Virus record (IMG/VR): IMGVR_UViG_3300042553_000685
From: a virus
Length of the DNA: 64,000 nt
Reading direction: 5' to 3' (one strand)
Each line of letters opens with the position of its first letter. Positions within the stretch are counted from its first letter, which is position 1. The notes beneath the pieces are model-generated. The model did no database searches. It was not told where the DNA came from and saw nothing but the letters and a program-made list of their open reading frames with translations. Shown here piece after piece: positions 4,719-63,752 of this stretch. The position numbers and the translations under genes are program-made.

Positions 4719-6283
4719 TATTTTGGTGTTCCTCCCTTCAGGGACTGTAAAATAGCACGGGCCTTCCCTTCGAAATAGGCATTTTGTGCTGCTGTATCAT
4801 TACCTCTCATTAGGGCCTCTACCTGTGCATTCAATATTCCTACCTCAACTAGCGGTACCCCTCTATTGGGCCCGTATAAGCCGTTGCGGTGATTTCTGGT
4901 GAAGGCGCCGAATGTTTGAGCTAGTCTATCCTCGTATGGTAGTATCTCCTTACGGCTAGGTATGACGCCAGTGGCACCCCTATACTCTCCTGCCGCACCT
5001 GCGTCGAAGTGTATCTCTAGAACACCCGCGCCATTGGTCTTCTCCTGCACGGCTCTATCTAACACTGATTGCCAGGAGGTACCTATTGGTGGTAAGAATA
5101 TAGATAGTTGGAGACCGTAAGAGGGGGCCAGTCTCTCCATTATCTTGAGGACCTGTTCATTCATCCAACTCTCCGCCGACTGACCTGGGGCCTGGGGTAG
5201 AGGTGTGCCAGCAGCTCCACTAGTACCTGATTTACCATCGCGGTGGCCGGCTGTTATGAACCAGCGAGTAGGCTCCTTATTAGTAGCACTCTGCCAGTCC
5301 TTATCATTCTTACGGCTTTCATTATATGTATCAGATACCTCAGGCCCCCTCTGTGTAGGTATGTCTTGTGCTTTATCCTCAACGCGCGCTATGCCCTCAG
5401 CCTGTCGTTGTAGATTCTGGCGGCTAGCCTCTAGGTAAGCCTGACATAACCGCCTCTCCTCTTGTATACGATAGGAAACTGTTATAGCAGTAGTCGTAGA
5501 TACAGGCTCCTCCTCTTGCCCCGCTACCATAGGTGTTATGCCGCTAGGCAGTGACTCCGTGGTAGCCGATGTAGGCCTGATACCCTGCATCCTCTCTAGT
5601 CCATCCGCTCGGGCGCAGTGTCGTGCTGATAGCTGCATGAGATGATTGACACTGCTGCGGCGGTCGCCGTTAGCTACCAGGTAAATGTTACTATCACTGA
5701 ATAGTATATTCTCTCCGCTTGTATAGAGAGAGCGGGTGCCTTCGTCATTGCGTATCTCTATAACACCGGGGCGGGGCTGTCTATCATAGGCCTCTGCTAG
5801 TGAGCCATAATCAGGGCTATCATACGCCGTATCTAGTGAATTGATGCCTGTTACGTGGAAGAAGGCATTGGGCTGTGTTATGCGATTAGGGTGCCCTAGT
5901 GGTTGGTTGAATGTCTGACCCTCGGGGCCGCGCTGATTAGGCTTCTGTAAATCACCATCTACGTATAGCTTATCGTAATTACCCTCTGAGGTATATCCGC
6001 CTAGGATGAAGGCATCCTCCATCTTCCCATCATTGAAGCCCACTATGACTGGCTGTCCTATCTCGAGAGGGTTGTATACGCCTAGCCCATTATGACCAAA
6101 GGGGCCGCTTATCCTAACATTATCCAGGATCATACCCTTCAATAGGCGCACCGAGCAGAAGTTACCTAGGCGGCCCTCCCTAGTGATACTATGGACTATA
6201 CCGCGCTGTATGCCCCACTGGCTCTTACTGTACTTATAGGAATGGGGCTCAGAGTATAGGCCGCCATTGTTATTAGCAAACAT
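4718..6283 (-). CDS. Baseplate spike-like protein (gpV/gp45-type N-terminus) with amidase-like C-terminus
   Basis: N-terminus has YNPLEIGQPVIVGFNDGKMEDAFILGGY (OB-fold spike pattern). C-terminus has ITAGHRDGKSGTSG ... VLEIHFDAGAAGEYRGATG, resembling MurNAc-L-Ala amidase (Amidase_3) signatures. Motif-level evidence only. Confidence 0.5.
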   Translation of the reverse strand: MFANNNGGLYSEPHSYKYSKSQWGIQRGIVHSITREGRLGNFCSVRLLKGMILDNVRISGPFGHNGLGVYNPLEIGQPVIVGFNDGKMEDAFILGGYTSEGNYDKLYVDGDLQKPNQRGPEGQTFNQPLGHPNRITQPNAFFHVTGINSLDTAYDSPDYGSLAEAYDRQPRPGVIEIRNDEGTRSLYTSGENILFSDSNIYLVANGDRRSSVNHLMQLSARHCARADGLERMQGIRPTSATTESLPSGITPMVAGQEEEPVSTTTAITVSYRIQEERRLCQAYLEASRQNLQRQAEGIARVEDKAQDIPTQRGPEVSDTYNESRKNDKDWQSATNKEPTRWFITAGHRDGKSGTSGAAGTPLPQAPGQSAESWMNEQVLKIMERLAPSYGLQLSIFLPPIGTSWQSVLDRAVQEKTNGAGVLEIHFDAGAAGEYRGATGVIPSRKEILPYEDRLAQTFGAFTRNHRNGLYGPNRGVPLVEVGILNAQVEALMRGNDTAAQNAYFEGKARAILQSLKGGTPK

Positions 6284-8154
6284 TAATCAGCGCTTCCTTG
6301 AATAGTAGTAGTGTAATCTCTGTGTGTTAACTTATGACGAATCGAGCGTACTTTGTACTTCGGTAGTACCGCGTTAGCTAGATCAGCGTCTACATTGCTG
6401 ACTATGCGGCCACTATTAGGATCAGCATAGTTATCATCAGTGGCATTGACGTGGGCCCCCACGTACCGTGTTAGTATATCACTGCCATCAGGAAAGGGCA
6501 CGGCCCGCGCCGAGGGACTACTTGCTACGTGCTCTCGCATGCGCGCTGATAGTTCACTCAACTTCTTCTTAGTAGCGTGCATGGTGCTCTCCTCTGCTAT
6601 AGAGTCGTATGCTGATATAATCTGCCTATCGTGTATCAATGTATTATATACCTGAAACATCTCATTTGGATACCAGGTGGGGTCTCCTACTATCGTGATT
6701 TGTATCGTGCTAATATCTCTACTGGTACGGCGGGCCATGCCTAAGCCAACTAATAAAGCCCCTGTCTCTTTACTGATGCCTGCGTCAGTATAGGCGCTTA
6801 GGTTCTTATCCTCAACGACAGTGGCCCTACATGCAATACGGGGCTTTCTATCAGCGTACTTATAGGGCGTGGCCTGTAATGTAACCTCAATGGCGTCATT
6901 GAATGAATCAGATGCACCGTTACCTCCATCATCAGTTACTATAAAGCGGTTAGTTGTGGCTATACTACTACTTACTACCCGCATGGAGAGTATGCGCTGT
7001 CTCTCATCAGGGCATATGTTAAGCCCCGCCGGTAGGCTGCGGAAGAAATAGGTTCTATACAGTCTATTGGGATCTTGGAAGCCACTAGTATCGCCGCTAT
7101 TAGGCGCTATTATAAAATCACCATTGATATGACTGAATGAGGCGTCTACTACACGCTCCTCCTTGAGTAGAAACGCCGCTTGTATTATATCAGCGGGGCT
7201 CTCATTAATGAAGTTGAATACCCCGCGGTTCTGCCCCTGCTCGATAGGCGGACGCTGTAACCATATATGAGTACGGGGGTTACCCCCTGGGCTCATAGGC
7301 GTGAACATAGCAGCCCGTGTCCAACGCGGCGCATCTACTAGCTCTTCGCCTGGCGTAAGCTTATTCATGTCCTGTATGATCTTAACCTCAGAATTACTCG
7401 CATCTCCGGCTATTAGTTTATTAGCGAATAAGTATTCTATCTTACCATCTGCGCCTATGTCGTAGCCGCGTACAGTCATACCCTCCTTGAACTCTTTCCA
7501 GCAGCTGGCTACCTGCGGGCCGCTCTCTGTTTCAATAGGGGAGTAACCTACTGCAAAGTTCAGTATCTTACGCAGTATAAGGGCTCTATCGCCCTTCTGT
7601 TCCGGTGTGGGGGCACTGAATAAGGTATCTGGGTTAGATAGAACACGCGTGTTGTGTAGTAGCCTCATACGATCTTGACACGATAACACTACCTGCACAC
7701 CTGTATTAGCATCAGCCGTTACCTCTACCTTCTCAATGAAGCCCCAGAATACAGGGAATAGAGTAGCGCCCTCCTTCGGTTTCATATCTGTATTTGGTAT
7801 AGGAAATGGTATATCAGATAGATTACTGATATCCAGTACCTGCTTATCTGACCCTACCATCCCCATGTAAATTCGTATCTCATCCTCCTCGCTGAGGTAG
7901 GGGTAGCGCCCGCCTCTGTACTTACTAACATCAGGTAACGCTGGTAGTAATCCCGGTGCATCTGGTACGGTTAGCGTTACGCGAGCTCTATTTATATTCC
8001 AGTTATCGGCGTTGATTATAACATCTACGGCGCGTACAGTCCAGCGACTCTTGTTTATATCTGTAGCGCATGTCTGAGTGCCAAATAATATAGGTTGTAT
8101 ATCACTAACAGCTGTGGCCAGCGTTATTACTGCAGCAGGTGTCTTAGGACGCAT
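6283..8154 (-). CDS. Virion protein, possibly baseplate hub (gpD/gp27-like)
   Basis: 623-codon ORF between the tube-position gene and the spike gene. Assigned by position only. No tape-measure-like protein is evident. Confidence 0.4.
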   Translation of the reverse strand: MRPKTPAAVITLATAVSDIQPILFGTQTCATDINKSRWTVRAVDVIINADNWNINRARVTLTVPDAPGLLPALPDVSKYRGGRYPYLSEEDEIRIYMGMVGSDKQVLDISNLSDIPFPIPNTDMKPKEGATLFPVFWGFIEKVEVTADANTGVQVVLSCQDRMRLLHNTRVLSNPDTLFSAPTPEQKGDRALILRKILNFAVGYSPIETESGPQVASCWKEFKEGMTVRGYDIGADGKIEYLFANKLIAGDASNSEVKIIQDMNKLTPGEELVDAPRWTRAAMFTPMSPGGNPRTHIWLQRPPIEQGQNRGVFNFINESPADIIQAAFLLKEERVVDASFSHINGDFIIAPNSGDTSGFQDPNRLYRTYFFRSLPAGLNICPDERQRILSMRVVSSSIATTNRFIVTDDGGNGASDSFNDAIEVTLQATPYKYADRKPRIACRATVVEDKNLSAYTDAGISKETGALLVGLGMARRTSRDISTIQITIVGDPTWYPNEMFQVYNTLIHDRQIISAYDSIAEESTMHATKKKLSELSARMREHVASSPSARAVPFPDGSDILTRYVGAHVNATDDNYADPNSGRIVSNVDADLANAVLPKYKVRSIRHKLTHRDYTTTIQGSAD

Positions 8155-8161
8155 AATTAAT

Positions 8162-8192
8162 AAAAAGGGGACTCAGGAAATCCTGAGTCCCA
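8162..8192 (-). terminator. Rho-independent terminator after the tube-position gene
   Basis: gggactcagga/tcctgagtccc inverted repeat (8168-8178 / 8181-8191), followed on the minus strand by a T run (plus-strand aaaaa 8162-8166). Confidence 0.6.
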
Positions 8193-8212
8193 TAAGCGGA
8201 GAGAATGTGGGA

Positions 8213-8923
8213 TTATTGTGTAATACTATTCCCAAACGATGAAGAAGAGCTTCCCACAGATAAAGGACGAGTATTGTTTTTGAACTGCTGAACAGATTCA
8301 GGAATATACCGAATACCTTCAGCTACACCCTCCCAACGTTGTGCAGGTACGCGACGACCAGGCATGAAGCCGACGCTGTAATTATCTACCTTGCATCTAG
8401 TTATTTCATATCTGAACTTCGCCCTACGATTACGACTAGCAGCACTATTACTAGGGAACTCTATGCCGCTCTGATTATCGCCATTAGAAGCGATATTCCA
8501 GAAGTCGAGGGATCCTAATCTACGACTATCTGTTCCACTACGAGTTAGTGGATTAGTTACTAACTCAGACGCATTAGCATCGAAGGTAATCTGGAACCGG
8601 GGGCTCCGACCTAGTATTTGATCACGACCAATTTCATTAGTGCCGAACGTGCGGCCCATAAATTCACCATCAACTAAACCTTGTTCTAGTACCCACGCGA
8701 TGTTATATTCCCCGTCTAGATAGACAGGTACGCGTTGGCCTAATTCTAAATAGGTCTCAGTCGAATTTCTAATACTGAGCGTCAGGGACTGGAACTTACC
8801 GAACCAGGCAACCTGTCCGCTACTAGTGTCATTAACCCAGACCTCGAAGTCAAACCCACTAAAGGGATCGAGACCAAAGTTATTGACAGCAGGAGTGAGG
8901 AAAAGAGCATCTTTAGATGACAT
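8213..8923 (-). CDS. Putative tail tube protein (by position)
   Basis: 236-codon ORF immediately downstream of the sheath-like gene and followed by a terminator. Confidence 0.45.
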   Translation of the reverse strand: MSSKDALFLTPAVNNFGLDPFSGFDFEVWVNDTSSGQVAWFGKFQSLTLSIRNSTETYLELGQRVPVYLDGEYNIAWVLEQGLVDGEFMGRTFGTNEIGRDQILGRSPRFQITFDANASELVTNPLTRSGTDSRRLGSLDFWNIASNGDNQSGIEFPSNSAASRNRRAKFRYEITRCKVDNYSVGFMPGRRVPAQRWEGVAEGIRYIPESVQQFKNNTRPLSVGSSSSSFGNSITQ

Positions 8924-8927
8924 TATA

Positions 8928-11252
8928 TTACTCGCCTAAGGGACTGGTTTCTGTGTCGCGGCTAATCGTCACATAGATATAATCCGCGCTATAAAGGGGC
9001 TGGAATTGTAAACTAACGTATAGTTCGCGGCTAAAGTAAGACGCTGTGCTATTATTGCTGCCATCGATGATGGCAGGCCGGAAGCTAACAATGTTGCCAT
9101 TCCGCTTGAGCTCGCCCATAAAGGCATTAAGAGCAGCGGCTATCTGATTACGGACTAAACGACTATTAGGCATAGCCACATAATTCCGTAGGATAGCGTG
9201 CGCCCCCTGCCTAACAACGTCGTGAACCCGGCGTAGATATATACGCTCCCACGCAGGATCAGTAGATAGTGTAACACCACTAGCAAAGCGGTATGTACGG
9301 TCAACTGTATCCAGACTCAGTACCTCTAACCGCGCAGCTGAATAGATGTCCTGATTGCTGCGGCTAGTATAGTTATCCGTATCAGACTCTATGATGTTAA
9401 AGAGGGGCCCGACAAGAGACCGCGCTGCAGGACTGACAAAGAAGTCAATAGCAGCTAATTTACCTGCGTAAACAGCAGCACCAGGCACGCCATAGCGACT
9501 ACTATTAGGTTGGCCGGCGTACGTAAACCAGCCTGCTACCATAACCGCACGGGTGGAGTTGAATCCACGCGTAACACTGGCAGCCAGAGTAGGGGTAGTG
9601 CGCGGAGGAGCGGCTAATACTGCAATACGAAGGCCATCACTATCACTAGCACGTTCGGCTTCAGTAATAAGAGCCTGCTGAACACCTACGTTGGTAGTGC
9701 CCACTAGGAGAATATGCACAGGTTGGTTCTCTAGAGTACGGATGATGCTAACATAGTCATCATTAGTTACAGGAGGCCCGTCGTATCCATTCTCTAGTGT
9801 TACATCCACTAACACATTAGGACCATAAAAGTCCACGTGGGCAGGGTTCTCAACATCAGTCTCACTCTCGTCAGGCGGGGCTAGTCTCAGCGGTGACTGA
9901 CGTACTAGAGCGGCGTCGTAATTAATCGAGTCGATGGACTTAGGTAAGAAGAAGCCTCGGATAAACTTCGAATCGAGGAGTGCATTTAATTCACCTGATT
10001 CGTTTGTATCCCCCAGTTTAACAGTGTAAACTTCATCGGCGAGAGGTGGGTTGAAGGCACTACCATTTAGATCTTGTACAGTAAGGCGAAACTCGCTATT
10101 ATTCACAGGATAGATACTAACCGTAACTTGATTACCCCAGTTACCCTCACTGACTGCCTGGAGGCGCAGGAGGGGGGTACCATTGAAGGTATAGAAATCA
10201 CGGAATGCACTACGAGGACCATCCAATCCGCCCTGGAATGAGGTGAAATGAATAGCGGGATCCGGAATAGTAGTGACTAATGCAGGACTAGTGGTAAAGC
10301 CTCTATTAGCAGTGTTGTCGTTTGCCGTTACGTAGAACGAGAAGCGATTGCTGATAGAACCAGTGAGAGCAGGCTCTAATTGAATGACTACTCCGTTGTC
10401 CTCAACATTACGAGTAATCTCACCAAAGGGCTCCACACCTGCACAGGCACTGATCAGGCTAGTGACAATCTGGTTAGGTAGGTCGCCGCTAAAGATGGGC
10501 ACAGAGACTACATACTTGTTAACTCTAATACTCCAGCTATTACCCTCTACTAGATTGAGGGCCGCACCGACTACAGTACCGAAACGAACGCTGATGTTAT
10601 TACTAGTTAGTGGGATGAGAACGTTACTAGAACTACCTGCACCAGCAGCAATATTAACATCAATATCCGTAGTGACAGCCGCCCAGTTAAGTGGATTCTG
10701 ACCCAGTGGTACAAATTGCCATTTAATAGTAGCTACACCAGCAGCGACATCATCAACGCGAAGGAAATATCGGCCACTGGTAGAACCAGTATACGGGCCC
10801 GTCGCGGCTACTGTCTCTTTACTATTGACTACAGGCGCTACGGCAGTATTAGTGAGCATAGGCCATACTATATCAGCAGGTGCATCCTCGCGAGCAATAA
10901 CCTCTCCCACGAAATTGGTGTGGATATTGAGAGTGTTATTAACTCCCGCTACACCAGAGAATGTGAGGGATGCAGAAGCAGGGCGGCCCCGGCCAGTAAC
11001 TCGTACTAAGGCAATGTTAGCATCATCTTGATTAGCGAATTGATCATATACAGCCTGGTACTGTAATGAACCTGGACTAGTGTCGGAGCCATAGCGATAC
11101 GCAAAGTCCGAGAAGTTACCAATGTAGGTCAGGATGTTAGCCGGCCCTCGATTAAATCGGTCTATGATGGCGATCCGATTCAATACGTTCGGCCGCGGCA
11201 AGGCAAAACCTACATTAGTATCTTGAAATTCTATAAAGGGGGCGCGAGCCAT
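8928..11252 (-). CDS. Putative contractile tail sheath protein
   Basis: 774 codons. The C-terminal part (...AVMVAGWFTYAGQPNSSRYGVPGAAVYAGKLAAIDFFVSPAARSLVGP...) resembles the conserved sheath C-domain pattern (P.GA.AG..A......W.APAG). A tube-sized gene follows. Confidence 0.6.
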   Translation of the reverse strand: MARAPFIEFQDTNVGFALPRPNVLNRIAIIDRFNRGPANILTYIGNFSDFAYRYGSDTSPGSLQYQAVYDQFANQDDANIALVRVTGRGRPASASLTFSGVAGVNNTLNIHTNFVGEVIAREDAPADIVWPMLTNTAVAPVVNSKETVAATGPYTGSTSGRYFLRVDDVAAGVATIKWQFVPLGQNPLNWAAVTTDIDVNIAAGAGSSSNVLIPLTSNNISVRFGTVVGAALNLVEGNSWSIRVNKYVVSVPIFSGDLPNQIVTSLISACAGVEPFGEITRNVEDNGVVIQLEPALTGSISNRFSFYVTANDNTANRGFTTSPALVTTIPDPAIHFTSFQGGLDGPRSAFRDFYTFNGTPLLRLQAVSEGNWGNQVTVSIYPVNNSEFRLTVQDLNGSAFNPPLADEVYTVKLGDTNESGELNALLDSKFIRGFFLPKSIDSINYDAALVRQSPLRLAPPDESETDVENPAHVDFYGPNVLVDVTLENGYDGPPVTNDDYVSIIRTLENQPVHILLVGTTNVGVQQALITEAERASDSDGLRIAVLAAPPRTTPTLAASVTRGFNSTRAVMVAGWFTYAGQPNSSRYGVPGAAVYAGKLAAIDFFVSPAARSLVGPLFNIIESDTDNYTSRSNQDIYSAARLEVLSLDTVDRTYRFASGVTLSTDPAWERIYLRRVHDVVRQGAHAILRNYVAMPNSRLVRNQIAAALNAFMGELKRNGNIVSFRPAIIDGSNNSTASYFSRELYVSLQFQPLYSADYIYVTISRDTETSPLGE

Positions 11253-52649: not shown

Positions 52650-53159
52650 ATGAAGCTCAGAATCAAATTGACACGTAGCAACAAGACCCAGCAAGTAACA
52701 TTTACTACTAGTCCTAAGAATGGCAACACGGTGCTAACTGGCACCGTGGTGGGGGCCAGTGATTATCAATTGAACGTGAATGGTAACCTCGTTGATGTCA
52801 GTGAGTTAGCCATTGGGCTGACTGTTAATCTAGTATTCAGACCACAAGATACTGATACTATAGCCAAGCACGTAGCTAATGGTTACCGTATCCATGGAAA
52901 TGGCAGTCCATTCATCACGATGGTGATTGAATGTCAAACTAAGAAGCCCGCAGCCGGGGGCAACATAATCATCATGGGGGACGACATTGAGTCAATTGAC
53001 TATGAAGCATGGAATGACGATACCTTCGTGAATGAGGACGAGTTAGATATGCTCTTCAATAAGAAGGCAGAAACTAAGGGAGCAAGTGGAGCAGCGCGTG
53101 AAGCAAGTGCTCCTACTTCAGGTGCTCCCAACTGTTTCAACCGTAAGGTAACTCTCTAA
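52650..53159 (+). CDS. Hypothetical protein with acidic segment
   Basis: 169-codon ORF with gaggtaat upstream. Confidence 0.55.
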   Translation: MKLRIKLTRSNKTQQVTFTTSPKNGNTVLTGTVVGASDYQLNVNGNLVDVSELAIGLTVNLVFRPQDTDTIAKHVANGYRIHGNGSPFITMVIECQTKKPAAGGNIIIMGDDIESIDYEAWNDDTFVNEDELDMLFNKKAETKGASGAAREASAPTSGAPNCFNRKVTL

Positions 53160-53259
53160 GAGAGACACTAATAGAGAGCTAGAGTAGCCTAGCTATAAAT
53201 TACACGGCCCGCGGCTACTAGCGGGCCAACCCCGCTCATACCAGAGGGCGCGTAATACA

Positions 53260-53670
53260 TTGAGTAAACTAAACACAGCACTAGAGGTAATAGCAGAATG
53301 GTTAGAGGAGTATGGCCCCGCCCATCTCCCCATTCTAATGCGATACGCCTTACTAGAGAGATACACATTAACGAAGGCCCGAGAGATGGGCCACGATATT
53401 AATATATGTACAACAGCGTTCAAGAGCCTATGGATAGAGGCCAATGATGAGGAGGTGCAGATCGCGATATTACTGGGGAGGTATCTAGAGGGAAGAGGAA
53501 GAGTAGAATACTTCCGAGAGAGGCCCGAGTTAATAGAGGCGATGGGCTACTTCATGGCCCTAGGAGACCACGAGTTTTACAGAGGACTAGACAATAAGAC
53601 AATAAATGCGGCTAGAGAGAGAGCCGCGCGGGCAAGCAGTACTAGACTAAACAAATCATATGCAAACTAA
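53260..53670 (+). CDS. Hypothetical protein
   Basis: 136-codon ORF with a TTG start per the track. Confidence 0.45.
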   Translation: MSKLNTALEVIAEWLEEYGPAHLPILMRYALLERYTLTKAREMGHDINICTTAFKSLWIEANDEEVQIAILLGRYLEGRGRVEYFRERPELIEAMGYFMALGDHEFYRGLDNKTINAARERAARASSTRLNKSYAN

Positions 53671-53905
53671 ATACACAATACGAGCAAAGGATGGTAGGTA
53701 CCTCTCTCCCATTACTAGAGAGGAAGCAGAGGAGTTACTGAAGAGCGGTCTAATTAAGAAGGATAGCGAGGACGGGTACATAATGGTAGCAGACAGCGCG
53801 TTTGCCGTCAGTCAATACGTGATATATGATTGCCAGCACTTATGTGATGATTTAATAAATAATAATAAGACAACAGCTACCGCCGAACAGCCCCGCTCCT
53901 TATAA
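53660..53905 (+). CDS. Hypothetical protein
   Basis: 81-codon ORF with an ATG start. Confidence 0.5.
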   Translation: MQTKYTIRAKDGRYLSPITREEAEELLKSGLIKKDSEDGYIMVADSAFAVSQYVIYDCQHLCDDLINNNKTTATAEQPRSL

Positions 53906-53985
53906 GTAAACAGCCCCTATAAGGGATAGAGCCGAGAGGTAGAGGGGCCCGTCGTAATTGTGAGTACAGCCTCATAGCAACAGCG

Positions 53986-54312
53986 TCACACGTAGGCGGC
54001 CTGCTCACTCCTGAAGATATCAAGTAGGGGATCGATAGTAGATCTAAGGCCAGCCATGAGATGGCGAGCTGCATCAGTAGGTAGGCCCCGCCACCAGCGT
54101 TGCACCTTCTCCTGAGCCCAATCGAGGCCCAATCGCGTCATAGTGCACTGTAGTGTGCGCTCAAGCAGGCGGGTGAACTGAGCGAGGGGGCGTATATCAC
54201 CACTATCGGTACCGTAGTGTGCTACCCACTGAGAGGGGTCAGCGATAACCTCAGGATTCTGAGTAGCGTAGGCCAGGAGTTTATTCTCGATGGGGTTAAA
54301 TACAGAAGCCAA
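53986..54312 (-). CDS. Hypothetical protein; 5' end abuts the IS607 left end
   Basis: 108-codon ORF whose only start is TTG 54312. The frame is open only 8 codons further upstream, to a stop at 54339-54337. Confidence 0.45.
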   Translation of the reverse strand: MASVFNPIENKLLAYATQNPEVIADPSQWVAHYGTDSGDIRPLAQFTRLLERTLQCTMTRLGLDWAQEKVQRWWRGLPTDAARHLMAGLRSTIDPLLDIFRSEQAAYV

Positions 54313-54365
54313 AAACCTAACTAATATTATCCAAAATTACTCATGACTTGTGCTATAATAGTTCT

Positions 54366-54974
54366 ATGAGTAAGTTAACCATATCGGAAGCCGCTAAATT
54401 GAAAGGTGTAAGCGTATCGACGTTAAGGCGTTGGGAGTCTGAAGGTAAACTAATTCCAGAACGGACTGCTAATGGGCATCGTCGTTATACAATTTCTCAG
54501 TTGCTTGGTTTAAAAGAGAATCTCTCTTATACTGTTGGCTATTGCCGTGTTTCTAGTCATGACCAAAAGAAGGATTTAGAACGTCAAAAAGAAGTTGTCG
54601 AACTGTTTTGCGCTCAAAACGGTTGGCAAGTTGAAATTATAGACGACCTAGGTTCAGGACTTAACTACAACAAAAAAGGATTAAAGCGATTAATTCGGTT
54701 GATTGTTGATAGTAAAGTAGAGAGATTAGTCTTAACTCATAAGGATAGATTACTTAGATTTGGTAGTGAATTAATCTTTAGTCTGTGTGAGCAATTCGGG
54801 ACTGAAGTTGTCATTATTAATCGAACTGAAGACAGTACATTTGAGGAGGATTTAGCACAAGATGTCTTAGAGATTATTACGGTATTTTCCGCTAGATTGT
54901 ATGGCTCTAGAAGCCATAAAAATAGAAAAATCGTAGAGGAGTTAAGAGACGTTGCTACTAGGATTCAAGACTGA
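54366..54974 (+). CDS. tnpA: IS607-type serine recombinase transposase TnpA
   Basis: MerR-like HTH MSKLTISEAAKLKGVSVSTLRRWESEGKL plus the resolvase catalytic segment VGYCRVSSHDQKKDLERQ. I prefer ATG 54366. Confidence 0.9.
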   Translation: MSKLTISEAAKLKGVSVSTLRRWESEGKLIPERTANGHRRYTISQLLGLKENLSYTVGYCRVSSHDQKKDLERQKEVVELFCAQNGWQVEIIDDLGSGLNYNKKGLKRLIRLIVDSKVERLVLTHKDRLLRFGSELIFSLCEQFGTEVVIINRTEDSTFEEDLAQDVLEIITVFSARLYGSRSHKNRKIVEELRDVATRIQD

Positions 54975-56124
54975 GTTAAAACTAAATAATCAACAACGCT
55001 CATTATTAGCCCAACACGCAGGAACCGCACGTCATGCTTGGAATTGGGGTTTGGCTTTAACCAAGCAAATTTTAGACCATAATCAAGCTAACCCTGATGA
55101 AAAAATCAAGTTTCCTACGGCTATTGACCTTCACAAATGGTTGGTAGCATTGGTAAAATCAGAGCATGATTGGTATTATCAAGTGTCTAAATGCGCCCCC
55201 CAATGGGCGTTAAGAGCTTTATCCGATGCTTGGAAAAGATGCTTCAAGAAGATAGCCAAACCACCAAATTTCAAGAAGAAAGGTAAACAGGATAGTTTCA
55301 CTTTAGATGGGAGCATTAAAGTTGCTCATCAAAAGATAAAAGTTCCTGTAATTGGTTGGTTAAAAACTTACGAGCGGCTACCCTATGGATACCAGCCAAA
55401 ATCTGTCACTATTAGTAAAAAAGCTAATAGGTGGTTTATTAGTTTTAAGATGGAAGTTGAACAGCAAACAACCAATAAAACTCATGATGTAGTTGGTTGT
55501 GATCTGGGAATTAAATCTTTAGCTACTTTATCGACAGGGGAGACGTTTGAAGGCTCTAAAAGTTATCGTAAATACGAAAAACAATTAGCCAGACTTCAAT
55601 ACTTGAACCGACATAAGGTAAAAGGTTCAAATAATTGGAACAAAGCCCAACGGCAAATAGCTAAACTTCATTTTAAAATAGCTAATATCCGTAAAGATAC
55701 GTTACATAAACTCACCACTTATTTAGCCAAGAACCACGGCCAGATAGTAATTGAGGATTTAAATGTGTCTGGGATGATGGCTAATCACAAATTAGCTAAA
55801 GCCGTTCAGGATATGGGGTTTTACGAGTTCCGAAGACAACTTGATTATAAAACTCAGTTGTATGGTTCGGAATTAATCATAGCCGATAGGTGGTTTCCTA
55901 GTAGTAAAACCTGTTTTAATTGTGGGTACAAGAAAGAGTCTCTATCTTTAACTGAAAGAGTTTTTGAGTGTGAACAATGCCATGCAGTTTGCGGTCGAGA
56001 CTTGAACGCTAGTCTAAATCTAGCTTCTTTGGCGGTGAGTTCCACCGTGTCAGCTTGTGGAGTAGATAGTGCCGACACTACTACAGTGAAGCAGGAAGTT
56101 AACGTCAAATTTGCTCATGAGTAG
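54952..56124 (+). CDS. tnpB: TnpB (RuvC-like RNA-guided nuclease family), catalytic residues intact
   Basis: VVGCDLGIKSLA (RuvC-I D), IVIEDLNVSGM (RuvC-II E), and the zinc finger CFNCGY...CEQCHAVCGRDLNASLNLA (RuvC-III D). Confidence 0.9.
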   Translation: MLLGFKTELKLNNQQRSLLAQHAGTARHAWNWGLALTKQILDHNQANPDEKIKFPTAIDLHKWLVALVKSEHDWYYQVSKCAPQWALRALSDAWKRCFKKIAKPPNFKKKGKQDSFTLDGSIKVAHQKIKVPVIGWLKTYERLPYGYQPKSVTISKKANRWFISFKMEVEQQTTNKTHDVVGCDLGIKSLATLSTGETFEGSKSYRKYEKQLARLQYLNRHKVKGSNNWNKAQRQIAKLHFKIANIRKDTLHKLTTYLAKNHGQIVIEDLNVSGMMANHKLAKAVQDMGFYEFRRQLDYKTQLYGSELIIADRWFPSSKTCFNCGYKKESLSLTERVFECEQCHAVCGRDLNASLNLASLAVSSTVSACGVDSADTTTVKQEVNVKFAHE

Positions 56125-56150
56125 ATTTGAGTAGGTTTAATAGAACGGTC

Positions 56151-56179
56151 TTGAAACAGTGGGTCATTTGCTGTATAAT
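56151..56179 (+). promoter_or_regulatory. Near-consensus sigma70-type promoter 27 nt after the tnpB stop
   Basis: TTGAAA (56151-56156), a 17-nt spacer, then TATAAT (56174-56179). Confidence 0.5.
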
Positions 56180-56248
56180 TGGTTTATTGCGGGTGCGGCG
56201 CAAATGAACCTTGAAAACTCCATAGCGTATGGCCTTTACCACTGGGCG

Positions 56249-56285
56249 GTTCGAATTAATCTTAAACCCTACTAGGGATTGAAAC
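56249..56285 (+). CRISPR. Solitary 37-nt CRISPR-repeat-like unit
   Basis: GTTCGAATTAATCTTAAACCCTACTAGGGATTGAAAC. It has an internal CCCT/AGGG stem and the ATTGAAAC 3' handle typical of Cas6-processed repeats. It is close to a cyanobacterial repeat class I recall (unverified). No second copy occurs in the window. Confidence 0.45.
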
Positions 56286-56332
56286 CTCATAAGACGGCTC
56301 AAAGTGATTCGATTCCGCTATTCTGCATACAG
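56285..56332 (+). repeat. tRNA(CAT) fragment copy 1 (anticodon loop to 3' end plus trailer)
   Basis: 42/48 identical to 57478-57525. The first 15 nt (56285-56299) are identical. Counted by hand. Confidence 0.9.
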
Positions 56333-56724
56333 CGTTAGAGCAAAACCCACAACGTCATATAAGTTAAACCTATGAGTCACTATCAAAGTACCATTCCACC
56401 CTCTGGGGCAAACCTATTAACTATTGATTGCACTCTATGCTGGCGTTACTTAGTATAGAGTATAATATTGTATATCGATAAGTTATACTTATCAATTAAC
56501 CACAGCTTCTCTCACCTCAGATAGATATGCCCATAACATACAGTTATAATATATAACAATTCAAACATAAATAATTGGGGTTTTTAATACAGCGTTGTAA
56601 ATACGGCAAATATCGCCATATTTAGCTATATTTAAACAAATATTAAGCTATCAAATGCGAGCGAAACCTAGGCAGAGAGATAGACAAGAGTGAGTAGCCA
56701 CTCAATTATTAAGGAGATATAGGC

Positions 56725-56886
56725 ATGTCAAAAACAGTATTAGCTTTATATGTGACCCTTACCGTGTTCATAGTGATTCTAATGTATATAATGATATCAA
56801 TCATATCTGCTGGAGGGCCCGCCAGCGATACATGTAGTAGAGTGTGTAGCCACTCAATTATTAAGGATATACAAGCATGTCAATAA
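56725..56886 (+). CDS. Small hydrophobic peptide (53 aa), tandem paralog 1
   Basis: MSKTVLALYVTLTVFIVILMYIMISIISAGGPASDTCSRV..., with aaggag upstream. Below the ORF-track cut-off. Confidence 0.5.
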   Translation: MSKTVLALYVTLTVFIVILMYIMISIISAGGPASDTCSRVCSHSIIKDIQACQ

Positions 56887-57089
56887 CAGTAATAGCGTTA
56901 AATGTAGTCTTTATCGTATACATAGTGTTCCTGATGTATCTAATTCCTAGAGTAGGGCCCCGCGCTAGGTGGGGCCTTGTCGCGTTAATATGCGTCATAG
57001 CGTTGGTATGGATATCGATCATGTCTAATGGAGGGCCCGCCAGTGATACATGTAGTAGAGTGTTCCACTTCTCTATATCTAGGCTATAA
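56877..57089 (+). CDS. Small hydrophobic peptide (70 aa), tandem paralog 2
   Basis: MSITVIALNVVFIVYIVFLMYLI...ISIMSNGGPASDTCSRV... It has the same upstream box gtagccactcaattattaagga (56694 and 56846). Confidence 0.5.
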   Translation: MSITVIALNVVFIVYIVFLMYLIPRVGPRARWGLVALICVIALVWISIMSNGGPASDTCSRVFHFSISRL

Positions 57090-57112
57090 CACTACTTAAT
57101 ACTTGTAGCGCG

Positions 57113-57142
57113 GTAGTAGTAGTAGTAGTGGTAGTGGTAGTA
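57113..57142. repeat. GTA/GTG trinucleotide microsatellite
   Basis: gtagtagtagtagtagtggtagtggtagta. Confidence 0.85.
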
Positions 57143-57150
57143 TATAGAAC

Positions 57151-57190
57151 GAGGCCCGCGTCATAATAAGGAGGCCCGCGCCATAATAAG
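57151..57190. repeat. 20-bp tandem duplication
   Basis: gaggcccgcgtcataataag / gaggcccgcgccataataag (19/20 identical). Confidence 0.9.
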
Positions 57191-57210
57191 GATAAGTGGA
57201 ATAGTGTAAC

Positions 57211-57236
57211 CGACTCCGCTGTCCTGCATACAGTAA
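57211..57236 (+). repeat. tRNA(CAT) fragment copy 2 (T-loop to 3' end plus trailer)
   Basis: cgactccgctgtcctgcatacagtaa is 23/26 identical to 57503-57528. Confidence 0.8.
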
Positions 57237-57266
57237 ACCTTATCAAGAATTAAACTCAGGAGGAAG

Positions 57267-57398
57267 ATGTTGATTTTATTGCTTTCGCGGATTGGTGGAT
57301 TAATCTTCTCTATGATTTTGCTTCACAGGCTGTTACATCACTTCTATGTAGCGGCGTGGGACAAGAATACAGATAGATTGATAAGAAAGGGTAAGTAA
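57267..57398 (+). CDS. Small hydrophobic peptide (43 aa)
   Basis: MLILLLSRIGGLIFSMILLHRLLHHFYVAAWDKNTDRLIRKGK, with aggagg 5 nt upstream. Below the ORF-track cut-off. Confidence 0.45.
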   Translation: MLILLLSRIGGLIFSMILLHRLLHHFYVAAWDKNTDRLIRKGK

Positions 57399-57447
57399 CA
57401 ACATACTAGATATAACGCGGCCCCCCCCAATTAGGGCCGCACCACAA

Positions 57448-57520
57448 GCAGGATTGGCCGATAGGTGGAGGCACCGTCCTCATAAGACGGCTTAGAGCGG
57501 TTCGATTCCGCTATCCTGCA
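57448..57520 (+). tRNA. tRNA with CAT anticodon (elongator Met or Ile2 type), no encoded CCA
   Basis: Hand-folded cloverleaf. Acceptor gcaggat/atcctgc (7 bp). D-arm gcc-gataggtgga-ggc. Anticodon arm ccgtc-CTCATAA-gacgg. Variable loop cttag. T-arm agcgg-TTCGATT-ccgct. Discriminator A. The G1-C72 pair and the lack of three G-C pairs in the anticodon stem argue against an initiator tRNA. Confidence 0.9.
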
Positions 57521-57574
57521 TTCAGTAATATAAGGGGCCCCCCTATTAGAAATACCATAATACTAAGGAGAGCT

Positions 57575-57865
57575 ATGAAAGTATTAACCTCTTACGTCTT
57601 ATATCCATCACCAGACGAGCAGATCAACATTAAGAGGTATGCGTGCTTTGTGAAGCATATCATCAGTGTAGAGATTGATATGGTAATGTGGCCCAATAAT
57701 AGGGCCCGCAGTGTCCAGCTGATGAGATACCTGTTCGACACACTGAAGCTACAGTATACAGAACACGAGGATGGGTTTATGATCAGATTGCATAAGTTAG
57801 TATATACTGATGGCTCTACAGCACTAATAGTGCCAACGGCATATACAGACAAACTACTACGTTAA
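57575..57865 (+). CDS. Hypothetical protein
   Basis: 96-codon ORF with aaggagag upstream. Confidence 0.55.
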   Translation: MKVLTSYVLYPSPDEQINIKRYACFVKHIISVEIDMVMWPNNRARSVQLMRYLFDTLKLQYTEHEDGFMIRLHKLVYTDGSTALIVPTAYTDKLLR

Positions 57866-57998
57866 TCAGACACGTGTATACAGCGCAGCGTAATGTATCA
57901 CTAGGGGCCCGCCTCACTCTCAACTACATACAGCTCTAATAGACATAGTCTATTATTGATATACCTCTCTGTCAGCAGAGAAGTATATCAATAGCTAA

Positions 57999-58937
57999 TC
58001 AGCTCCATAAGCGAGGTAGCATCTCCTTGCACTTATGTATATACCAGTGGCCTTCAGGAGGAGTGTTATCTAATGCTTCCTGGAATAACATATCGCGTAA
58101 CCCTTGTACAGACATAAATGAAACAGGCTCGTGCAATAAACGTTGTGCTTGAGGGGTAATGCTGGGCCCCACAAATATAAACTCAACTGGTGTATCAAAG
58201 TGGTTATTGGCTAGTTCTATATAACCCTTATCAGCTATAGTAGATACTACGTCCTCTACGCCAATAGGGTTAATCTTAATCTCAATGACCTGTGTCTTAC
58301 CATTGCTAGAACGGCATAGGTCAAAGCGACGAGTGCGGGCCCGACTCTCTAGTGTGTTGATTACTGTTAACTCCCTAGTGAAGGGGTTAGTAGTATAACT
58401 AGCTAATAATACTAGATCCATCTGTAACTCAAGCTCAGAGTTATAGGTGGGGCCCGTCTCTACGTTACGTATAGATGTAGCTCGTGGTGCAGGTGCTGTC
58501 TTAGTTCCCTCTACACGAGAGAGAGCGGGGCCCAGCCTAATATTATTATGGAGGGCTATACGTCCATAAGCCGCTGTCCAATTACATACCCATAAGTGAT
58601 TATTATAGTAATTGACATCGTAATAAGTACATAGTGCTCTTTGAAATGGTTTAATAGCTAAGGCATCTAGTTTAATCAAACGCGGTTTAGGTAGGCCAGG
58701 TCTATCTGCCCAGGTGCGTACAATAGGGTTAAATAAGTTCCTGACATTGCTAGTCGACATCTTGAGTCTTTGCGCTATTTCAGGCATTAAGAAGTAAGCA
58801 TCTTTACCGTCTCTATCAGGTACCCAGGTGAGTTGGTATTCATCAACCCAATGAACTAATTGATCTAGTATGGGGCCCGCGCAATTAGGGTATTCTTTAA
58901 GTATGGCCGTAGATAAATCTGGCAGTGCAGCTGGCAT
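57999..58937 (-). CDS. Hypothetical protein with PD-(D/E)xK nuclease-like motif
   Basis: 312 codons. ...ELELQMDLVLL...RRFDLCRSSNGKTQVIEIKINP fits an E...D...ExK arrangement. Confidence 0.5.
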   Translation of the reverse strand: MPAALPDLSTAILKEYPNCAGPILDQLVHWVDEYQLTWVPDRDGKDAYFLMPEIAQRLKMSTSNVRNLFNPIVRTWADRPGLPKPRLIKLDALAIKPFQRALCTYYDVNYYNNHLWVCNWTAAYGRIALHNNIRLGPALSRVEGTKTAPAPRATSIRNVETGPTYNSELELQMDLVLLASYTTNPFTRELTVINTLESRARTRRFDLCRSSNGKTQVIEIKINPIGVEDVVSTIADKGYIELANNHFDTPVEFIFVGPSITPQAQRLLHEPVSFMSVQGLRDMLFQEALDNTPPEGHWYIHKCKEMLPRLWS

Positions 58938-58980
58938 ATTTGAATCCTAAAGTAATTATTCTAATAATAACACACAACTA

Positions 58981-59014
58981 TTAATAGCACACAAGTCAAT
59001 TTGTGTGCTATTAA
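58981..59014. repeat. Long palindrome 1 (14-bp arms)
   Basis: ttaatagcacacaa gtcaat ttgtgtgctattaa, between the genes 57999..58937 and 59043..59285. Confidence 0.9.
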
Positions 59015-62847: not shown

Positions 62848-63209
62848 CGTTGATTATAATTTACACATACAGGATTAGGCAGGCACTAGGCAGGCATGCA
62901 CTAACTAAAACTATGCGTGGCTAGTTTTATAGCAAAGGCTATTCACACAAAACACAGTCATATTATGACTGACGTTCTAGATTACATCACTATCTATGTT
63001 TCATAGCTAGTTATAATTCCTGCGGAAGGTTTATCTTGTGGCATCCACGACACACTCTACAGCGTGACGGCTTTAGTTGATTTGTCTCTAGAGTTGCCGA
63101 CGGCGAAAGAGATATACAATGTTTACAAAAACAATAACGCCCATTTCAGCGTAGAGGTTATAAAAAGTGGCTATCACTTTTACAGCATTTGGTAACAAGC
63201 AATTAAGTC

Positions 63210-63233: not shown

Positions 63234-63752
63234 ATGTTAACACTAGCATTAACAAAGATTATGAACATATACAAAAGATTGGGCGCAAAAACGGTATCTT
63301 TGGCTAATATGTGGAACGCAAAACCTCCGTTTATCGGGGAAGACGGTAATCCCTGTGAAGAAACTGTAAAATGGGCATTAAACAAACAAGGTTTTGTCGA
63401 TACAGATAATATTAAGTTTGATTCTTGCTGTTATTTAAAAGATGCCTGGACGGATTCTGTTGTCGCTGTCGTTCCTGCTACAGCTACTAGAAATGAAGAA
63501 ACGATCTACTTGCATCCTAGTCTTAGCGGTATCTTAGGGGAGTTTTACGCTGAATGTTGCCGGGTCGATAGTCAAGAAATTATTATCGGACCATATCAAC
63601 CACATCAAATAGAAAAAGCTTTTGATGACTGCATAAAAAAGCGCAAGATGTACTTGAGTACATCAAAAGTAAGTGTATTTATACCAAAGGTGCTAATCTT
63701 GATAAAAGATTTACTTTTTTACATGATGATGGCTGGTATTGCGATGGTATAA
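63234..63752 (+). CDS. Hypothetical protein
   Basis: 172-codon ORF. ATG 63234 abuts the hairpin; an alternative ATG is at 63261. Confidence 0.5.
   Translation: MLTLALTKIMNIYKRLGAKTVSLANMWNAKPPFIGEDGNPCEETVKWALNKQGFVDTDNIKFDSCCYLKDAWTDSVVAVVPATATRNEETIYLHPSLSGILGEFYAECCRVDSQEIIIGPYQPHQIEKAFDDCIKKRKMYLSTSKVSVFIPKVLILIKDLLFYMMMAGIAMV

Follow-up and report, generated by a model that had tools for sequence, protein, structure and literature searches.

Viruses are already known to carry pieces of their hosts' clustered regularly interspaced short palindromic repeat (CRISPR) loci: solitary repeats, RNA anti-CRISPRs (Racrs), mini-arrays and, in the cyanophage N-1, an array of the repeat family that concerns us here. 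We analysed such a piece in a 64,000-nt stretch of viral DNA (IMG/VR record IMGVR_UViG_3300042553_000685), called the window below and numbered from its first letter. In it a single CRISPR-like repeat lies downstream of tnpB, the second gene of an IS607-family insertion sequence (IS). We conclude that the repeat and the 100 nt before it are very probably host DNA joined to phage DNA: a CRISPR array's first repeat and, before it, the promoter-bearing end of a leader of Microcystis subtype I-D, and that the IS was a separate, later arrival. This degree of confidence covers the identity and anatomy of the locus only.

Solitary repeat units and Racrs (PMC10651486, Camara-Wilpert et al. 2023) consist of a single phage repeat nearly identical to that of the host, with a promoter within 250 bp. 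The locus described here is alike in both respects, and its predicted upstream product of about 90 nt compares with 70-76 nt for RacrIF1 (PMC10651486). It differs in that its promoter and upstream RNA would be the host's own captured CRISPR leader. It differs also in its type I-D context, which the main text of PMC10651486 mentions only in a reference title; Microcystis phages are not mentioned in that part of its supplements which was searched. The mini-arrays of the Sulfolobales viruses SPV1 and SPV2 (PMC6858448, Medvedeva et al. 2019) likewise place a host-homologous, promoter-containing leader before host-type repeats in a virus without cas genes. Theirs hold one or two true repeat-bounded spacers that target sibling viruses, whereas the present locus holds a single repeat, with no spacer between repeats. 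Because bacteriophage mini-arrays are stated to be without leaders (PMC6858448), a leader on a bacteriophage is unusual. The Nostoc cyanophage N-1 array (PMC4916379, Chenard et al. 2016) is again from a cyanophage, has 37-nt DR5-family repeats typical of cyanobacterial I-D, lacks cas genes and is transcribed. It differs in having five repeats and four spacers, and its leader was inferred from AT-richness rather than from homology to a host leader.

How do phages acquire solitary repeats? The question is open in the literature on solitary repeat units, Racrs and mini-arrays, and the present locus offers a sequence-level example of how it may happen. Varble and colleagues (Nature Microbiology, 2019) reportedly showed by experiment in staphylococci that phages and CRISPR loci recombine through the identity of spacer and protospacer. 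That process predicts a junction such as we find, with host array up to the end of a repeat and phage DNA from the protospacer onwards. The reported work concerned CRISPR-locus transduction in the laboratory; here the product would be natural, fixed in a lineage of lytic cyanophages, and would keep only about 172 nt of host DNA. Three features of the locus have no counterpart in the literature searched: an authentic host leader together with one repeat on a bacteriophage, a junction from which the origin can be read, and the subtype I-D context.

A subtype I-D leader and repeat in a Microcystis phage

Among the Microcystis myophages, the window belongs to the Ma-LMM01/MaMV group (genus Fukuivirus). 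This region is 88-92% identical to Ma-LMM01, MaMV-DC, MaMV-DH01, MaMV-CH01/02 and MaMV-DL01/02. Homology to Ma-LMM01 (record L001 below) and MaMV-DL01 (L002) ends at window position 54294/54295, within the homologue of gp051 (L001 2639, L002 3341). It picks up again at 56285 in MaMV-DL01 and MaMV-DH01 (L106) or at 56326 in Ma-LMM01. Features of the interval and its surroundings are listed in Table 1.

A preliminary description of this DNA, made from the letters alone, had pointed to a 37-nt CRISPR-repeat-like unit at 56249-56285 and had cited from Microcystis a repeat that would differ from it at two positions. Both statements hold. The 37-mer occurs once in the window (and in none of 100 shuffles) and aligns over its full length to Rfam CRISPR-DR5, with 29.4 bits against a gathering score of 40. 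It agrees at 35 of 37 positions with the M. aeruginosa DR1 repeat, GTTCCAATTAATCTTAAACCCTATTAGGGATTGAAAC, which belongs to subtype I-D arrays (Yang et al., PMC4428289). The comparison with host repeats that the description had proposed gives a closer match still: the commonest host variant (...CCCTACTAGGG..., 344 of the 801 host repeats sampled) is one base away (36/37). The phage-specific base is a G at position 5, found in 0 of the 801. The 37-mer fits the host pattern GTTCCAATTAATCTTAAACCCTA(T/C)TAGGGATTGAAAC. Its hairpin, CCCUACUAGGG, and its 8-nt handle, AUUGAAAC, are both kept; the hairpin part within CCCTACTAGGG and the 3' handle ATTGAAAC are the same as in host repeats, and the hairpin forms in the minimum free energy fold. 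No second copy was found in the 64-kb window even with nine mismatches allowed, so the locus does not qualify as a CRISPR array, for which at least two repeats with spacers of about 33-40 nt between them are needed. The Microcystis repeat types DR2-DR7 were likewise absent from the window at nine mismatches.

In the 100 nt before the repeat, a promoter scan recovered the TTGAAA-17-TATAAT element at 56151-56179 that the preliminary description had reported 27 nt past the tnpB stop; it matches the consensus at 11 of 12 positions. MaeCRf2 is a leader primer for polymerase chain reaction of the Microcystis I-D CRISPR (Kuno and Kimura, PMC5852275), and a metagenome scan from its site to the repeat yielded 15 host contigs. 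Against 14 of their leaders with first repeat, window 56149-56285 is identical at 122-128 of 137 positions (89-93%), with the repeat at the same distance; the fifteenth leader has a 1-nt deletion. The arrays behind these leaders reach 122 DR1 repeats (just two are visible at the end of one contig). In contig L096 the leader comes after cas6-cas4-cas1d-cas2, the Cas1d scoring 420 bits on TIGR04093 (cut-off 385). The leader promoter is thus predicted both by its consensus match and by homology to the promoter of host leaders. Isolated phage genomes gave no match to the 100 nt, the repeat part excepted. The 'about 100 nt of hairpins' that had been described here were not confirmed: the fold of RNA 56186-56335 does not exceed that of shuffled sequences (z = +0.67), and the 100 nt were rejected as a structured RNA; they proved to be host leader.

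The unit in relatives without the IS

The same unit (promoter, 100 nt, 37-mer, then CTCATAAGACGG) stands in five phage contigs that have no IS: L085, L086, L087 and L104 from IMG/VR and L098 from JGI. They come from five metagenomes, and each has phage DNA on both sides of the unit. The unit is therefore older than the IS. The IS-free contigs carry about 35 nt more of the leader upstream, through the MaeCRf2 site, which in L085 and L086 (CTTATCCCGTAAGGTTTTGC) matches the primer at 20 of 20 positions.

All six genomes with the leader, the window included, share one junction and have exactly one repeat. In four contigs the first 200 nt, covering the unit and the start of the pseudo-tRNA described below, are identical (200/200), and the next 400 nt differ by 1.5-7.8%. 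The variant in L104 is changed only at repeat positions 2 and 24 (in the loop) and at one leader base, with stem and handle kept. In place of the TTGAAG that all 15 hosts have as the -35 box, every phage copy reads TTGAAA.

The right end of the IS lies 100 nt short of the repeat

IS607-family transposons with TnpB and its omega-RNA are said to have been described by Karvelis et al. (2021) and Altae-Tran et al. (2021). The element in the window has what they have: a serine recombinase with an N-terminal MerR-type helix-turn-helix (HTH) domain together with TnpB, GG at both ends (/GGGTTAAAT...AACGG/) and at the target, and a structured RNA that overlaps the 3' end of tnpB and runs to the right end. 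The family needs neither inverted repeats nor a target duplication. In its TnpB the CDLG, IEDL and RDLNA motifs are intact, as are the zinc motifs (CxxC), and the protein is 95-98% identical to full-length Microcystis chromosomal copies. The GC content of the IS is 0.377 compared with 0.49 in its left flank. The element itself is ordinary; only its insertion site, in a captured CRISPR leader, is notable.

Where does this element end? Seven Microcystis chromosomal copies (93-99% identical) and four from Cyanothece/Crocosphaera (about 83%) match the window from 54292-54303 to 56148/56149 only; the flanks differ in each of the 11, and the begin and end positions are the same. Ma-LMM01 holds a full-length 1856-bp copy elsewhere (134688-136543; gp135/gp136; 98.0% identical), and internally deleted copies in the MaMV phages, MaMV-DH01 among them, have the same ends. 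In 22 more distant relatives (TnpB identity 65-85%) the right end is always ...ACGG/, followed by divergence. Right ends of other IS607 copies had been proposed as a check, and all of them end at ...ACGG/: the 37-mer occurs in none of the 33 other copies and relatives, which have unrelated DNA beyond the right end, and the more distant 22 have no CRISPR-like repeat. The end at 56148 leaves the promoter, the 100 nt and the 37-mer outside the transposon, a point absent from the preliminary description. The 37-mer, 100 nt beyond, is hence off the mobile element.

The RNA of the IS likewise lies within it. RNAalifold on 23 IS right ends gave 18 base pairs, 12 of them with compensatory changes, in helices at about 56033-56095. 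The 37-mer as omega-RNA scaffold is thus ruled out: it is outside the IS, it is missing from other copies, and the covarying structure is inside. TnpB guides derive from the sequence that flanks the right end of the transposon. Because IS and scaffold end at 56148, the guide position would be 56149 onwards and not the tRNA-like sequence. The suggestion of a homing guide like that of CRISPR-associated transposons found no support either; the element encodes only TnpA (the IS607 serine recombinase) and TnpB, and the repeat is off the element.

The IS is accompanied by a deletion. The leader site of the IS-free relatives reads ...GTTTTGCGGGG/TCTTGAAAC and the gp051 site ...CTCGATGGGG/CTCACG; the window has the IS between these two GG sites (phage targets ...GCGGGG/ in the leader and ...GATGGGG/ in gp051). 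The left flanks of eight IS copies share no clear motif past GG(G). The insertion point is at a GG 2 nt upstream of the leader -35 box, and both -35 and -10 remain intact. Between the two sites about 1.3 kb (in Ma-LMM01 coordinates) to 3.2 kb (relative to L087) are missing: about 35 nt of the captured leader's upstream part, half the gp051 homologue, and the stretch that holds the relatives' other repeats. Two insertions followed by recombination between the IS copies would fit, as would a recombinase-mediated deletion. A search of IMG/VR with the IS left-end pattern, for an intermediate whose leader is intact apart from the IS, gave no match. Simple insertion of the IS into a tRNA gene is ruled out, the left flank being the gp051 homologue and the tRNA fragment bordering the repeat, not the IS. 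The absence of a tRNA 5' half at the left end of the IS, stated earlier, was borne out: with up to eight mismatches allowed the sole match is the tRNA itself.

MaMV phages have other TnpB-like transposase genes of about 400 codons at varying positions: 4777-5985 (-) and 7922-9109 (+) in L002, 2093-3301 (-) and 5240-6427 (+) in a further record, L003. This part of the genome is a hotspot of insertion and rearrangement in the relatives.

The junction suggests spacer-protospacer recombination

What stands in the position of a spacer? The sequence after the 37-mer had been likened to the tRNA(CAT) gene at 57448-57520, and the match was reproduced in full (42/48 identical, with a 15-nt identical run). 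ARAGORN and Rfam call no tRNA at 56286-56327, where the cloverleaf is incomplete. This sequence is phage DNA, collinear with a pseudo-tRNA of MaMV-DL01 (L002 6665-6725) and MaMV-DH01, and the homology runs for more than 500 nt. In those two phages the place is taken by a decayed tRNA-Met paralogue, ...GGCACCGTC/CTCATAAGACAGC..AGTGATTCGATTCCGCTATTCTGCA, with neither IS nor repeat at the site. The tRNA similarity is therefore a relic already present in IS-free relatives, an outcome that the preliminary description had named as one that would undo its proposal. Ma-LMM01 retains the 5' half of the paralogue only. In the window lineage, host leader and repeat stand in place of the whole pseudo-tRNA upstream of its anticodon loop.

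At the junction the repeat ends exactly where CTCATAAG begins. In the intact tRNA-Met and in the pseudo-tRNA of MaMV-DL01 alike, GTC directly precedes CTCATAAG. Type I-D uses the protospacer adjacent motif (PAM) GTN, and the 5' flanks of four host spacers that match these phages (GTT, GTT, GTC and ATT) fit such a motif here. Because GTC precedes CTCATAAG, the junction lies where a spacer taken from a pseudo-tRNA protospacer would abut the repeat. The concrete find that remains is an authentic host leader, promoter included, with one repeat on a bacteriophage, joined at the start of a spacer position whose counterpart in the phage is preceded by a PAM.

The simplest origin, and with some reserve a probable one, is that a spacer of the host recombined with its protospacer in the phage. 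A host would have taken a leader-proximal spacer, reading CTCATAAGACGGCTCAAAGTGATTCGATTCCGCTA, from the phage pseudo-tRNA, where the protospacer was preceded by the PAM GTC. Recombination between spacer and protospacer would then have brought leader and repeat into the phage, with the left crossover at a short GCGGGGC microhomology. The exchange would have swapped the PAM for repeat sequence, and the protospacer would at once have escaped I-D targeting. Two points weigh against this account: a donor spacer beginning CTCATAAGACGG is not among the 613 unique spacers sampled (the 15 host contigs and L084), and a GTN before the junction is expected by chance at 1 in 16. If the account is right, the locus is a natural record of spacer/protospacer recombination as a route of escape from CRISPR.

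Further fragments that resemble the 3' end of a tRNA lie at window 57207-57232 (GTAACCGACTCCGCTGTCCTGCATACAG, between the unit and the intact tRNA) and at the start of gp051 (L001 2970-3000 in Ma-LMM01, L002 3670-3705 in MaMV-DL01). Such repeated partial copies suggest past integration or recombination at tRNA sequences.

Host-type repeats elsewhere in the phage group

Ma-LMM01 has three copies of the host I-D repeat at L001 3159-3392 (35708-35941 of the record, + strand of the record), on the strand opposite to that of the window unit. All three end in GAAAA rather than GAAAC; 0 of the 801 host repeats end in A. Their spacers are 36 and 33 nt, and they lie 25 nt downstream of a promoter that matches TTGACA-17-TGnTATAAT at 12 of 12 positions. 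The record labels part of this stretch only as a '56 bp repeat unit'; these units can now be re-read as host CRISPR repeats behind a strong promoter. MaMV-DL01 (L002 4349-4516) has the same perfect promoter with two repeats. This repeat stretch of Ma-LMM01 and MaMV-DL01 is deleted in the window. The literature searched, which did not include the Ma-LMM01 genome paper, gives no account of CRISPR repeats or leaders in Ma-LMM01-type phages.

MaMV-DH01 has three degenerate repeat-like sequences on the minus strand (L106 1623-1659, 2008-2044 and 2089-2125; 8-9 mismatches in 37), about 1 kb from its IS607 copy. Two of them keep their 3' parts well (...TTATTAGGGATTGAAAC and ...CCCTACTAGAGATTGAAAC), and these sequences could be additional solitary repeats of the phage group, now decayed. 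The IS607-free relative L087 has at 1620-1646 a 27-nt partial repeat that is 100% identical to window 56258-56284, in the same orientation, and adjoins a different TnpB-type IS.

A candidate RNA anti-CRISPR

Does the unit act on the host? It has sequence features by which solitary repeat units are recognised: it is a virus-borne mimic of a repeat, no second one lies within 100 bp, and a predicted promoter stands within 250 bp upstream, here an 11/12 match to the sigma-70 consensus 70 nt before the repeat. For cas genes near the unit, a Pfam scan covered, of the open reading frames at 51-60 kb, tnpA, tnpB and the gp051 remnant (the last without a match), and none is annotated in the stretches of the relatives examined. 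The preliminary description had offered a phage-borne solitary repeat unit as one of three readings. As an identity this stands, and goes beyond a repeat mimic to a captured I-D leader with its first repeat; the action against the host that had been attached to it is more doubtful.

Tentatively, and with somewhat more doubt than belief, we regard the unit as a candidate RNA decoy against host type I-D immunity. The host-type promoter would yield an RNA starting near 56186. The I-D Cas6 would bind the repeat hairpin and cut 8 nt before the end of the repeat, between 56277 and 56278. The product, about 90 nt of leader and hairpin without a 5' handle, would tie up Cas6 and the backbone subunit Cas7 in dead-end complexes of the kind demonstrated for RacrIF1. 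Suggestive hints that the unit is retained or used are its conservation, the stem and handle kept in L104, the TTGAAA -35 box, the repeats of the relatives and the infection of strain NIES-298 described below.

Other points tell against this proposal. The promoter is a consensus match with homology to host leaders, and no genes resembling known anti-CRISPR genes were recognised nearby. The conservation of the unit could stem from recent spread among phages instead of selection, and in three of the four contigs the flanks closest to the unit show good conservation as well. Finally, the downstream product, if loaded as a CRISPR RNA (crRNA), would find a match beside a PAM in the tRNA-Met gene of the phage itself, with four mismatches in the first 35 nt. 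Such a self-match would be harmful, so either the product is not loaded or the mismatches protect.

Microcystis is a heavy user of type I-D CRISPR, and phage control of toxic blooms gives a candidate type I-D RNA anti-CRISPR in this genus practical interest. That the Ma-LMM01-type phages as a group use promoter-driven copies of host I-D repeats in this way is possible, but we would not call it likely. In the window lineage such a copy would be the captured leader and first repeat, in Ma-LMM01 and MaMV-DL01 the two or three repeats behind the consensus promoter. If true, a Racr of type I-D, and one built from a host leader, would be described for the first time. The lysis of strains whose I-D spacers match the phage would be explained too: M. 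aeruginosa NIES-298 carries spacers directed at Ma-LMM01 and yet is infected and lysed (PMC5780444).

Other explanations

Leader and repeat might equally be a neutral scar, left by one recombination with a host array that perhaps once gave escape through loss of a PAM, and inactive today. We take this seriously, though it falls short of being probable. The single junction in all six genomes points to one capture event, the RNA is not unusually structured, the region is a hotspot of rearrangement and IS insertion in all relatives, and the IS and the loss of the upstream leader were tolerated. Against a scar, the 137 nt are unchanged across four contigs with flanks that differ by up to 7.8%, the -35 box is nearer consensus than any host's, and Ma-LMM01 and MaMV-DL01 have independent promoter-plus-repeat units. 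A working crRNA, in which the 8-nt handle and pseudo-tRNA load host I-D Cascade and target the tRNA-Met or pseudo-tRNA loci (PAM GTC) of competing phages, seems to us unlikely. The handle is intact, the 15-nt PAM-proximal match to the tRNA adjoins GTC, and mini-arrays of Sulfolobales viruses with host-like leaders do target related viruses (PMC6858448). However, there is no second repeat to set a 3' end, the phage's own tRNA-Met would be matched as described above, and the 'spacer' is merely collinear phage DNA with homology over more than 500 nt. Could the unit instead be a decoy or seed array for adaptation, a leader and one repeat forming a minimal site at which host Cas1-Cas2 would insert spacers, in place of the host array or in addition to it? 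Its repeat does follow 100-135 nt of authentic leader, an arrangement shared with virus mini-arrays that are believed to gain spacers (PMC6858448), and Ma-LMM01 and MaMV-DL01 have two or three repeats with spacers of 33-38 nt. But every one of the six genomes with the leader has exactly one repeat, the mini-arrays of the relatives have no host leader, and the change at repeat position 5, near the leader junction and absent from all 801 host repeats, could disable integration; we consider this very unlikely.

The remaining explanations involve the IS or the assembly. That the 37-mer is the 3' scaffold of a TnpB omega-RNA, making the locus a TnpB-to-CRISPR intermediate guided to a tRNA gene, was the first reading of the preliminary description, and we now give it almost no credence. 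In its favour there is proximity (125-161 nt past the tnpB stop) and shared orientation, nothing more; the other IS copies end 100 nt before the 37-mer and pass into unrelated DNA, five phage contigs have the unit without the IS, the unit is homologous to host leaders, and the covarying scaffold is inside the IS. The idea of an intermediate does not hold, because the link to TnpB is coincidental and the unit lies outside the IS. In another version the IS position is no accident: TnpB with guide TCTTGAAACAGTGGGT would cut the leaders of IS-free siblings (homing) and possibly host I-D leaders, disabling arrays. The guide position does equal leader sequence, IS-free sibling phages match it at 20 of 20 positions, and the host leader type L100 differs at one of the first 16 nt; among its first 12 nt, however, most host leaders depart from it at two or three positions (8, 9, 11), and no clear motif beyond GG(G) shows to the left of the eight copies. 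We think this highly improbable. An assembly chimera of host array and phage DNA at a shared spacer/protospacer is scarcely credible. Identity over the length of a spacer could in principle mislead an assembler, but the host piece is just about 135-172 nt and lies between stretches of phage DNA in five independent contigs, each from a different metagenome.

Features of the region

The gp051 homologue at the left edge of the IS is truncated: the Ma-LMM01 protein has 227 aa (a 684-nt coding sequence), of which the window retains the part given in Table 1. An Rfam scan of the whole window at gathering thresholds gave no hits, the intact tRNA-Met of Table 1 included, which looks like a filter effect of the program and not biology.

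Table 1. Features of the window around the captured leader and repeat, with strand and supporting details
Feature	Position	Strand	Details
Last 100 nt of Microcystis subtype I-D CRISPR leader, with predicted promoter	56149..56248	+	-35 at 56151-56156, -10 at 56174-56179
Solitary host I-D CRISPR repeat, in first-repeat position	56249..56285	+	37-mer GTTCGAATTAATCTTAAACCCTACTAGGGATTGAAAC
3' half (anticodon loop to acceptor end) of decayed second tRNA-Met copy	56286..56327	+	Phage DNA at spacer position
Intact phage tRNA-Met(CAT)	57448..57520	+	52.8 bits in Rfam E-value scan of 53000-59000 (gathering score 29)
IS607-family insertion sequence, 1856 bp	54293..56148	+	Ends /GGGTTAAATACAG ... AATAGAACGG/
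tnpA, IS607-type serine recombinase (MerR-type HTH and resolvase)	54366..54974	+	Pfam Resolvase 1.1e-21, MerR 4.9e-16
tnpB, 390 aa, apparently intact	54952..56124	+	Pfam OrfB_IS605 5.4e-28, Cas12f1-like TNB 1.5e-19, HTH_OrfB_IS605
Predicted omega-RNA scaffold of TnpB	56033..56148	+	Ends at IS right end; conserved terminal motif ...GAGTAGGTTTAATAGAACGG
Putative TnpB guide position	56149..56168	+	First ~16-20 nt past right end, TCTTGAAACAGTGGGTCATT; overlaps leader -35 box
Truncated gp051 homologue	53986..54312	-	C-terminal ~108 codons left; N-terminal half and start lost at IS/deletion breakpoint

Two host I-D spacers from metagenome arrays match the window outside the unit, at 63084-63117 (-; 31/34 aligned positions) and at 63474-63506 (+; 31/33). 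The second match is flanked by GTT; beside the first, ATT stands in place of the expected GTN, perhaps through a mutation of the PAM that allows escape.

Just downstream of the unit is a direct duplication of about 106 nt (56687-56792 and 56839-56944, about 82% identical), present in relatives too. It covers two small hydrophobic open reading frames of 53 aa (56725-56886) and 70 aa (56877-57089), which are probably paralogous small membrane proteins. A run of GTA/GTG trinucleotides, gcggtagtagtagtagtagtggtagtggtagta, follows at 57108-57140.

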